Origin: a virus
DNA length: 64,000 nucleotides
Strand: one strand, 5' to 3'
Virus record (IMG/VR): IMGVR_UViG_3300023184_000083
Span: 13,725 to 77,724 of that record
The first letter of the stretch is position 1. Every line of letters begins with the position of its first letter. Under the pieces are notes generated by a model. It saw only the letters and a list, made by a program, of their open reading frames with translations. It did not search any database and had not been told where the DNA came from. Below are positions 16,418 to 45,071 of the stretch, in pieces. A program made the position numbers and the translations under genes.

Positions 16418-16689
16418 AGTGGGTGTACTCCTTTGTTAGTAGTGATAGAAACTCTATCCGTTATTAGCAATAGACACAACCTTTGTTTTGTATTTCCTTT
16501 CCGCCACCGTCACTGCTTGAGAAACACCATACACCTCTTGCGTTTTGTGATTTCACAAATGGGTGTGTCATGGTTATTTGAACCTTGCAAATAGGGGTAA
16601 AAGGGTCTAAAAATAATCTTTGGGGGCGAGTTGTCATTGTTCCTAATAACGGATAACTTGAAGGTATCGCAAGTGTTAGGAGAAACACA

Positions 16690-17079
16690 ATGTCCACAAT
16701 CCAAGAAAAGGTAGCCATTCAGTACCTCGCCGCAAAGCAGGCAGTTGAAATGGCAGATAAAGCAATGGCAACAGCCAAGCAGTTGCTTGAAGAGACCTAC
16801 GCCGAAATGGGCGTGACTGATGTCGTCATTGACGGGGTTAAGGTCGCAATCGTTGAGGCAACTCGTCGCAACTTTGATACAGAGGCTCTAAAGGGTCTCA
16901 TTGTCGCTACAGCGTTTGAGGCAGTCACTAAGACCTCGGTTGAGCCGAAGGCATTTGATAAGGCTATTAAGGCTGGCACAATCGCCCCCGAAGTAGAAGC
17001 ACAAGTCGTTACAGGCACATCGTACACTCGCATTACAACCCTAGAGGTTGAAGCGGTTGCTGTCGCTGTCGCCTCTTAG
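16690..17079 (+). CDS. hypothetical protein with N-terminal coiled coil
   Basis: First rightward early gene; AGGAG RBS. Confidence 0.65.
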   Translation: MSTIQEKVAIQYLAAKQAVEMADKAMATAKQLLEETYAEMGVTDVVIDGVKVAIVEATRRNFDTEALKGLIVATAFEAVTKTSVEPKAFDKAIKAGTIAPEVEAQVVTGTSYTRITTLEVEAVAVAVAS

Positions 17080-17091
17080 GGAAGGAACCCA

Positions 17092-17502
17092 ATGGAACAA
17101 CACGAAATCGCAGAACTCGCTAAGAGGGTAGAGGGCGCACTTGCTCACGACATGATGTTAGAGGACTCGTACGCTTTCGGACTTTCCGACGGTGCCGAAG
17201 TCCCGGTGATGATGGCAGAGTGTGCAGATGTCTACGACTTACTAGACGACCCGATGACCCCGATGACTCTTGACCTGTTCGGTCATGTGGCTATCGTTTC
17301 GCACGGTTGGGCGCAAGACATGACTGACCACAAAGCACCGCCAGTTCGTGTACGCCTACTTGTTGCTGTGTCTCGCAACGGGGCTCGCTCGTCGGTTGTT
17401 CGCTTCATGGACGATACTGACCATGTTCTCTATGACGAACAAGGTGAAGGTAACGGTACTCTCGCTGACGCAATCCTCGCTCTCTGTGAAAACGGGGAGT
17501 AG
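17092..17502 (+). CDS. hypothetical protein, paralog of 21645-22064
   Basis: DVYD..GWA..RVRL..S..F.D....DE.G...G.LA.AI shared. Confidence 0.65.
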   Translation: MEQHEIAELAKRVEGALAHDMMLEDSYAFGLSDGAEVPVMMAECADVYDLLDDPMTPMTLDLFGHVAIVSHGWAQDMTDHKAPPVRVRLLVAVSRNGARSSVVRFMDDTDHVLYDEQGEGNGTLADAILALCENGE

Positions 17503-17540
17503 AGGTTGTCATTGTCGCTAATAAAGGATAACTTGAAGGT

Positions 17541-17888
17541 ATGACATCACAAGTAGAAGCAGTAGCAGATAGCAACGCAAAGACGGAGCCTGAGTATCAG
17601 GTTATTTGCGAGGGTCTGCCAATGGAATACGGCGAGGACGAGTTTGTCCGAGTTCGTAGATACCACAAAATCCGTGAACGAGTGAAGGGCGACACCTACG
17701 CCACTTGGGAAGTCTTGTGTGAACGAGACCACTACAGCAAAGACGAACTCGTTCTCCACCCCTTCATCGTGTGGACACTTGTAGCCCGCCCCGATGGTTG
17801 GTCGTTCGCTGGTGGAGAGTATTACAAAACTTACGAAGAGGCTCTAAAAAACTACAAGAAAAGGACTCTAGGTGCAACTGATATCTGA
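17541..17888 (+). CDS. hypothetical early protein (leaderless)
   Basis: ATG at +1 of repeated promoter. Confidence 0.65.
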   Translation: MTSQVEAVADSNAKTEPEYQVICEGLPMEYGEDEFVRVRRYHKIRERVKGDTYATWEVLCERDHYSKDELVLHPFIVWTLVARPDGWSFAGGEYYKTYEEALKNYKKRTLGATDI

Positions 17889-44641: not shown

Positions 44642-44841
44642 GATAACTATTGTAAGTGAAGGGTGATGTGTGATGAGACACTATCGCATTGGCATTCATT
44701 GAGTGAGACACTAAGGTCATCATGAGGTGGCATTAGGGGTCATGAGAGAGCCTCTGAGAGCCTCTAAGAGGACATGGGTCATGATGTGGTCTCTCTATGG
44801 GGTGCTGTCAAGGGGTGCCCTATGAGGCGAGGGGTAGGCAT

Positions 44842-44893
44842 GCCTAACAGAACAGGTGTTCGTGATAGGTCAGCCTAACAGAACAGGTGTTCG
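44842..44893. repeat. 21-bp direct repeat containing LexA-type boxes, interleaved with IdeR-like boxes
   Basis: GCCTAACAGAACAGGTGTTCG at 44842 and 44873; GAAC-N4-GTTC core; ATAGGTCAGCCTAACAGAA at 44865 is 15/19 to TWAGGTWAGSCTWACCTWA. Confidence 0.7.
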
Positions 44894-44896
44894 GCC

Positions 44897-44985
44897 TGTG
44901 GATAAAGGGTGTGGATAACCACTAAAAGTGGTCAAAAGGGGTCAAAAACCACTATCCATAGTCATTTCTCGGGGCTTTTTCCACA
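44897..44985. promoter_or_regulatory. DnaA-box cluster with phased A-tracts
   Basis: TGTGGATAA at 44897 and 44910; TTTTCCACA at 44977; A-tracts at 44924/44934/44944. Confidence 0.65.
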
Positions 44986-45071
44986 GGGGTCTCAGGGCTG
45001 TGGGGAGCAACATACTAATAAATGAAGTTTCCCCACTCTTCAAATAGATTTATCCAACCCCTTCGTATGCG

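Follow-up and report, generated by a model that had tools for sequence, protein, structure and literature searches.

Host-type operators in the promoter islands of a freshwater actinophage may couple phage transcription to host state

The viral record IMGVR_UViG_3300023184_000083 carries, in short islands upstream of its promoters, binding sites of the kind that bacteria use for their own DnaA, LexA and ParB proteins, together with a palindrome of metal-repressor type. We analysed 64,000 nucleotides (nt) of this record, called the window here, which correspond to bases 13725-77724 of a 77.7 kb contig judged to be about half complete. The full genome is that of a freshwater actinophage of roughly 130-150 kb. 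The sites are real, non-random and conserved among relatives, and the DnaA boxes keep a strict distance and orientation to the promoters that follow them. We propose that the islands let the phage sense host state at its promoters through host-type operators, a reading to which we give an even chance. Binding of each site by the matching host protein, with activation or repression as the outcome, is what the motifs predict.

A preliminary description of the window had listed these sites as host-regulator payloads, and each element it named was found where it had been placed (Table 1). Some of its assignments hold and others do not, as set out below.

Results

DnaA boxes are enriched, intergenic and phased to promoters. 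The record holds nine perfect boxes (TTATCCACA), whereas 500 order-3 Markov simulations gave 0.73 on average and never more than 5 (Poisson P about 8e-8). Moreover, TGTGGATAA is one of the genome's 14 most frequent 9-mers; the rest are either of low complexity or fragments of the promoter and polar repeats described below. Six to seven of the nine perfect boxes fall in the non-coding 15% of the sequence (P = 7e-4 to 5e-5). One-mismatch boxes occur at chance level, so only perfect boxes are worth counting. Relatives were collected through the SNF2 helicase gene (27563-29479), which yielded 386 contigs, the longest 118-148 kb, and conservation was counted over 80 related loci totalling 1.23 Mb. 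These loci contain 106 perfect boxes where 9.4 are expected.

The position of the boxes follows a simple rule. Across the 80 relatives we assembled 436 unique promoter-like sites and found 48 perfect boxes on the same strand within 120 nt upstream. All but three lie at one of two distances: 28 start 24-26 nt before the GTTG of the -35 element and 17 start 36-38 nt before it (45/48). Assuming a leaderless start, the box centres fall near -57 and -69. Opposite-strand boxes number only 11 and are scattered, and the reversed-word control gave no occurrence. The boxes' surroundings are uniform, with the family -35 coming after cTGTGGATAActttctt, and the linker between box and -35 keeps its length while its sequence varies. 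The three-box arrangement at 22225-22257 recurs in two relatives (L008 and L015).

This phasing bears on whether the sites act as sensors or as decoys, the two possibilities that the preliminary description had offered. A relationship between protein and polymerase, or between protein and promoter, predicts a fixed distance and orientation and a linker conserved in length alone, and titration has no such need. The strict spacing and orientation therefore favour the sensor, and the decoy becomes less likely.

One perfect box has a different setting. On the minus strand, the box at 2795 has the sequence TGTGGATAACTTACATG (2785-2805). It overlaps a -10-like TAACTT as well as the ATG (2789) at which the leftward gene probably has a leaderless start, and such a position would suit repression.

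LexA-type boxes touch DnaA boxes. The record contains three GAAC-N4-GTTC sites, all non-coding and of the CGAACA..TGTTCG type. In each, a single outer position of the 14-mer is mismatched and the GAAC-N4-GTTC core is intact. Their number is unremarkable, but a perfect 20-nt direct repeat holds two of them. Among relatives the signal is clear, with 19 exact CGAAC-N4-GTTCG sites against about 1.3 expected (~15-fold) and tandem arrays in three loci (L047, L072 and L039). At 29.6 kb the box is found about 80 nt upstream of the presumed start; in a second region, the hub, which precedes a 1654-aa gene, the boxes stand upstream of a TTGACA-like element. At 29598 the gap between LexA-type and DnaA box is 0 nt; in the hub it is 3 nt (44894-44896), as it also is in one relative (L095). 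These adjacent boxes look like a composite operator, and contact at two unrelated places in the window suggests competition or cooperation between two proteins.

The hub is a conserved combination of elements. Seven relatives carry a palindrome, one or more DnaA boxes, one or more LexA-type boxes and iteron-like repeats in the equivalent region (L095, L097, L099-L101, L106 and L108), and the hub's element types are likewise present in the complete relative G066. The window's own hub also contains short direct repeats (44642-44830 and 44920-44960): GAGAGCCTCT twice, GGTCATGA-like words three times, and TGAGACAC and GGTCAAAA twice each. Relatives have different, iteron-like repeats at this position.

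A perfect parS abuts a second palindrome. The single parS of the record matches the 16-bp chromosomal palindrome TGTTNCACGTGAAACA exactly and ends 12 nt upstream of the GTTG of a -35 region. A dozen relatives also place parS just upstream of a promoter. Eight of the relatives carry the pair of parS and abutting TTAGG-N4-CCTAA, with invariant palindrome arms and a variable centre. An asymmetric parS variant, TGTTTCACGGGAAACA, occurs in four phage loci (L007, L015, L021 and L032) and in four candidate host genomes (G010, G028, G043 and G049).

The preliminary description had called the adjoining palindrome IdeR-like. By hand alignment it matches 13 of 19 positions of the IdeR/DtxR iron box TTAGGTTAGSCTAACCTAA, short of a canonical 19-mer, and only the 14-bp unit TTAGG-N4-CCTAA of that box is present in the window. 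This half-site spacing is that which one IdeR dimer uses within the 19-bp operator in the IdeR-DNA structure. Given this one-dimer geometry and a like site before the FTR1 gene in four host-family genomes, the label is imprecise yet probably points to the right protein family.

Table 1. Sites, promoters and genes in the window (positions of the 64,000-nt stretch)
Feature	Position	Strand	Details
Perfect DnaA box	2795..2803	+	between divergent gene starts
Perfect DnaA box	7231..7239	-	in the 6954-7399 non-coding stretch
7-2-7 palindrome	16544-16559		adjoins GGTGTGTCA (16562-16570); neither assignable to a host regulator
TTAGG-N4-CCTAA palindrome TTAGGCATACCTAA	18910..18923		candidate one-dimer DtxR/IdeR-type operator, one base from parS
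Perfect 16-bp parS TGTTTCACGTGAAACA	18925..18940		sole copy in record
Early promoter copy	18951..18991	+	leaderless ATG 18989, 56-aa product; families D1/D2
Three DnaA boxes	22225..22257		TTTTCCACA (22225, 1 mismatch, opposite orientation), then perfect TGTGGATAA at 22237 and 22249, 12 nt apart
Early promoter copy	22273..22313	+	leaderless ATG 22311, KTSC-domain protein
Near-SOS box AAACATTTGTTC	26633..26644		overlaps polar-repeat tail
LexA-type (Cheo) box CGAACATACGTTCt	29585..29598		CGAACATACGTTC at 29585; abuts distal DnaA box TGTTGATAA, no gap
DnaA box pair	29598..29618		TGTTGATAA (29598, 1 mismatch) and TGTGGATAA (29610, perfect), 12 nt apart
Early promoter copy	29632..29672	+	leaderless ATG 29670, 67-aa product
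Hub upstream of 1654-aa gene	44834..44918		palindrome, two LexA-type and two perfect DnaA boxes
Hub palindrome GTAGGCATGCCTAA	44834-44847		
Hub 20-nt repeats, each with AGAACAGGTGTTCG	44849-44862 and 44880-44893		
Hub perfect DnaA boxes	44897-44905 and 44910-44918		
One-mismatch DnaA box TTTTCCACA	44977..44985		hub edge
Perfect DnaA box	46711..46719	-	inside a gene
Truncated LexA gene	47518..47880	-	PF01726, E = 1.3e-13; 120 aa, DNA-binding domain only
Perfect DnaA box	49752..49760	-	inside a gene

The genome points to a freshwater actinobacterial host. Two WhiB genes (5019-5354 and 36446-36805), a GC content of about 47%, an origin in lake-water and freshwater metagenomes, and a helicase whose nearest named relatives are in Arthrobacter phages together argue for such a host; the WhiB genes bear out the actinobacterial guess of the preliminary description. 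A megablast search against the phage collection gave no match. Helicase relatives were binned in metagenome-assembled genomes labelled as several lineages of bacteria and an archaeon, which we attribute to mis-binning because these lineages are unrelated. Only the bin labelled 'Actinomycetota bacterium' was used, as a starting point alone. It led to a 1.5 Mb genome (G001) and to its family of 61 small genomes (1.0-2.2 Mb), which size, habitat and GC suggest are the abundant freshwater low-GC actinobacteria.

Candidate hosts carry the same motifs on their own chromosomes. The DnaA tandem TGTGGATAA-N3-TGTGGATAA, with at most one mismatch, occurs in 48/61 host-family genomes, about once each (control 0), and in 33/201 genomes phylum-wide. 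In complete genomes it lies at the chromosome ends, and in G001 it stands about 25 nt before dnaA. CGAACA-N2-TGTTCG is present in 56/61 family genomes (control 3/61); in the single genome inspected, it precedes lexA by about 80 nt. parS, again with at most one mismatch, is found in 46 of the 61 at one to two copies each; where it and the dnaA tandem could be placed on the same contig, about 3 kb separates them. Several phage relatives share the host variant CACGGG. The DnaA, ParB and LexA assignments of the preliminary description thus agree with motifs that the host family has at its own dnaA, parS and lexA loci.

The metal-repressor motif is informative at a single kind of locus. Across the host family both the 14-bp palindrome and the canonical IdeR 19-mer occur at control level, the latter without enrichment, and only sites linked to FTR1 were taken as informative. 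In G040 an FTR1 iron-permease gene has its start codon 25 nt after the 14-mer palindrome, and the enclosing 19-mer matches 15/19 IdeR-box positions by our own count. Orthologous sites occur in G025 and G053, and a like site, whose gene context was not read, in G007. A DtxR-type repressor gene is present in both site-bearing genomes tested (G040 and G053), and none was found in three genomes without the site (G017, G010 and G001), a small sample.

Islands sit between a polar repeat and leaderless promoters. About 18 copies of a 44-nt promoter-like repeat, all rightward, lie between 16.5 and 30 kb. Most have an ATG only 6-7 nt past the -10, from which we conclude that the transcripts are leaderless. 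A polar repeat of one orientation lies upstream of six of these promoters at a start-to-start distance of 120-146 nt. The preliminary description had spoken of 110-140 bp spacers with varied payloads; of the six islands measured, three hold recognisable host-type sites. The core of the repeat, CCGCCACCGT, is always on the plus strand regardless of the direction of the neighbouring gene and has nine to eleven copies between 7367 and 29508, with CGGGGC coming next in the early region. In three distant relatives (L037, L043 and L066) a DnaA box stands immediately ahead of a related element, GCCACCGT.

For two further sites of the preliminary description, a regulator-site role found no support. 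The 16544 palindrome occurs in this genome alone, with no copy found in any relative. The near-SOS box at 26633 is the tail of the polar repeat, has a mismatch in one half-site and was judged to resemble an SOS box by chance.

Payloads turn over rapidly between relatives. The assignment of payload to gene junction is not conserved; after the helicase gene, the LexA and DnaA payload occurs in the window only. The gene that parS precedes in the window stands behind DnaA boxes in L015 and L032, and the family of the 67-aa product encoded at 29670, driven here from the LexA and DnaA island, stands in nine relatives behind a promoter with palindrome and parS. For the KTSC gene, upstream DnaA boxes are retained in four genomes (relatives L002, L013 and L016 among them). 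Fixed gene-specific wiring of the sites therefore finds no support: payloads are swapped and lost among close relatives.

Phage-encoded proteins are possible ligands for two of the four site types. DnaA domain IV was found neither in the record nor in five relatives, three of them complete, which leaves host DnaA as the sole candidate of that protein family. The window does encode a truncated LexA (Table 1) that has neither a cleavage site nor an S24 peptidase domain. Its alignment with host LexA stops before the linker and Ala-Gly site, and its recognition helix differs from the host's at several positions. The gene is present in the relatives G062-G064 and absent from G065 and G066. At its 3' end the frame overlaps a tRNA-Arg(TCT) gene (47484-47557, plus strand), and its last ~13 codons are probably antisense read-through of the tRNA, outside the real domain. 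ParB-N proteins of 257-287 aa occur in all five relatives examined and align with Noc/Spo0J through the N-domain into the start of the helix-turn-helix region. One ParB-N gene (L155, G062:79682-82912) lies between RuvC-like and PAPS-reductase-domain genes, a neighbourhood that suggests DNA metabolism or modification rather than partition.

Gene presence does not track the sites in whole-genome maps. The complete relative G066 has no LexA gene, yet it has the most LexA-type boxes, eight, five of them in tandem beside seven perfect DnaA boxes; in G062 the gene is present without any good LexA box. Likewise, G065 and G066 encode ParB-N proteins and have no parS, and G064 has four parS sites. This argues against the phage LexA and ParB-N proteins as necessary ligands. 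The preliminary description had assumed host proteins throughout. For DnaA the host protein is the only candidate of its family, and for the LexA and ParB sites the phage's truncated LexA and the relatives' ParB-N proteins are possible ligands as well.

A further element and a further protein are candidates for a part in binding. GGTGTGTCA (16562-16570), beside the unsupported palindrome, is a family-wide motif, TTGACACACCCC (other strand GGGGTGTGTCA), often with a downstream TGTCA. It recurs at 44799-44813 and in relatives L062 and L036, with 13 copies in L062 alone. It contains GACACAC, the half-site of gp6, the truncated LexA of phage GIL01, and on that ground could be a target for the phage's own LexA-domain protein, as a lead only. 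Just after an AAA_25 helicase-like gene, a 204-aa protein (38528-39142) with an N-terminal helix-turn-helix, matching many such families weakly, is a candidate for binding the unassigned repeats. Pfam gave no hit for the 1654-aa protein or for most of the small early proteins.

A model of promoter-coupled sensing

Host-type operators could serve as input modules of the phage. The islands would feed a subset of sigma-A-type, mostly leaderless promoters as well as the hub before the 1654-aa gene, through operators that share their sequence with those the probable host family uses on its own chromosome. DnaA would be read through head-to-tail boxes 12 nt apart, as before host dnaA; LexA through the box type seen before host lexA; ParB through an origin-proximal parS sequence; and a metal repressor through TTAGG-N4-CCTAA, like the site before the iron-permease gene in hosts with a DtxR-type repressor. 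Once bound, these four host proteins would tie phage transcription units to initiation potential, DNA damage, chromosome state and metal supply. A LexA box that touches a DnaA box may make the two proteins compete or cooperate.

Several observations weigh against this model. The phage encodes a LexA-domain protein of its own and its relatives encode ParB-N proteins. The LexA boxes lie upstream of the -35 rather than overlapping the promoter as in classical repression. The -35 and -10 hexamers show no clear difference in quality between promoters with and without boxes, so activation is indistinguishable from repression. Rapid turnover of payloads, with no tie to particular genes, is less expected of gene-specific control. 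Finally, we infer the identity of the host family from a mis-binned phage contig, the WhiB genes, GC content and motif sharing.

A more ambitious picture is less likely than not. In it, a globally abundant family of large freshwater actinophages would run an infection-timing circuit of swappable cassettes, each made of a terminator-side repeat, an operator payload and a leaderless promoter. The operators would be drawn from those of the few global DNA-binding proteins left to a genome-streamlined host, namely DnaA, ParB, LexA and a DtxR-type repressor. The phage's uncleavable LexA domain would be an extra player, and DnaA, at about -57 and -69, would be a phage transcription factor.

Alternative explanations

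The strongest rival is a self-contained phage circuit. On this account the LexA-type boxes and parS are cognate sites of the phage's truncated LexA and ParB-N proteins and merely resemble host sites. The window and G062-G064 do carry the truncated gene, ParB-N proteins recur in 5/5 relatives, and there is a precedent in GIL01, where gp6, a truncated LexA, activates the late promoter P3 (PMC6182141). That precedent also cuts the other way, as gp6 binds a sequence other than LexA boxes, and the recognition helix of the phage LexA is unlike the host's. G066 has its eight boxes without the gene, G062 has the gene and no good box, and G065 and G066 have ParB-N genes without parS. The DnaA boxes would be left uncovered, with no phage DnaA found in the record or the five relatives. 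Weighing these points, we regard a phage-only circuit as unlikely.

Decoys are a further step down in plausibility. A multiplying phage genome could titrate host DnaA, ParB and LexA and so stop initiation, segregation or SOS control. Candidate hosts are indeed poor in sites, with about one DnaA tandem, one to two parS and one to four perfect LexA boxes per genome, numbers that a hundred phage copies would exceed, and payloads interchangeable among genes fit a role at the level of the genome. Titration would not need a fixed distance and orientation to the -35, yet nearly all of the phased boxes comply. A genome with a single parS and a handful of boxes makes a poor sponge, and some complete relatives lack parS or have hardly any LexA boxes. 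We consider titration improbable as the main function. Because the hosts carry so few sites, it may occur as a by-product.

The hub could instead belong to a plasmid-like maintenance module. It would be a replication origin (44.6-45.1 kb) recruiting host DnaA, with parS serving episomal partition. DnaA-box clusters and short iteron-like direct repeats in the hub and its equivalents in relatives fit an origin, as do the four parS sites of G064 and the seven perfect and four variant boxes that G066 packs into 1.5 kb close to its cumulative GC-skew minimum. That minimum, however, lies a few kb from the hub of G066, and the signal is weak and follows gene orientation. Neither an AT-rich unwinding element nor DnaA-trio-like repeats were evident in the hub by reading, a helicase, an SSB and an AAA_25 protein are encoded by the phage itself, and the majority of boxes sit at promoters outside the hub. 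An origin is accordingly a long shot.

Chance resemblance, or functionless remnants of captured host DNA, might explain the chance-level one-mismatch DnaA boxes, the unsupported 26633 and 16544 sites and the control-level palindrome in the host family, but strong enrichment (P about 1e-7 in the window and far lower family-wide) and non-coding, phased sites conserved in relatives with diverged flanks make it barely credible as a general account.

Comparison with known systems

Promoter-coupled sensing would have consequences beyond this genome. The phage family in question is uncultured and very abundant, and its probable hosts are slow-growing, small-genome bacteria of a kind abundant in lake plankton. 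What the analysis yields is a set of concrete operators with a rule for their position. Phage subgroups could be linked to host sub-lineages by the operator variants they share, for instance in parS or in whether a DtxR site is present; the parS variant common to some phages and some hosts could serve for such pairing. The truncated LexA would be a second natural example of such a phage-encoded protein. If DnaA does control phage early promoters, natural phage development would be tied to the host replication cycle.

DnaA acts as a transcription factor and at origins of phages and plasmids, as at lambda pR and P1 oriR. The window resembles these in placing perfect TTATCCACA boxes on a mobile element, and its head-to-tail tandem is that of bacterial dnaA/oriC regions. 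To our knowledge, a phage family in which DnaA-box pairs keep a fixed distance upstream of many early promoters has not been described. A search of an incomplete literature collection likewise returned neither phased DnaA-box pairs at phage early promoters nor the combination of four systems.

Only a few model systems have so far shown phages reading host master regulators. phi29 and its relatives carry five host-type parS sites and Spo0A boxes near early and late promoters (PMC2731898). Both there and here a phage genome bears sites for a host partition protein and a host master regulator. phi29 has a sporulating host, and its sites work in spore entrapment and in suppressing the lytic cycle. 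By inference the host here is a non-sporulating actinobacterium, the regulators are DnaA, LexA and a metal repressor, and the single parS is fused to a second palindrome.

GIL01 of Bacillus thuringiensis is the closest precedent for the LexA components. This 15-kb temperate linear plasmid-prophage has LexA boxes within or downstream of its promoter and encodes gp7; host LexA occupies tandem boxes, and gp6 binds a different palindrome at -43.5 in activating the late promoter (PMC6182141). It shares with the window tandem host-type LexA boxes at a phage promoter region and a phage-encoded protein that is made up of LexA's DNA-binding domain only. Here, by contrast, a genome of ~130-150 kb has its LexA boxes upstream of the -35 and in contact with DnaA boxes, and nothing points to lysogeny, though no search was made for gp7, integrase or ParA.

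In alphaproteobacterial phages, CtrA sites are conserved in promoter regions and are read as timing of the lytic cycle by host state (PMC9437464). The window shares with them the operator of a host cell-cycle master regulator in phage promoter regions. It differs in the regulator, in the host phylum and in the number of systems, one there against four here. To the regulators that phi29, GIL01 and the CtrA phages read, the present case would add DnaA, the universal initiator of replication.

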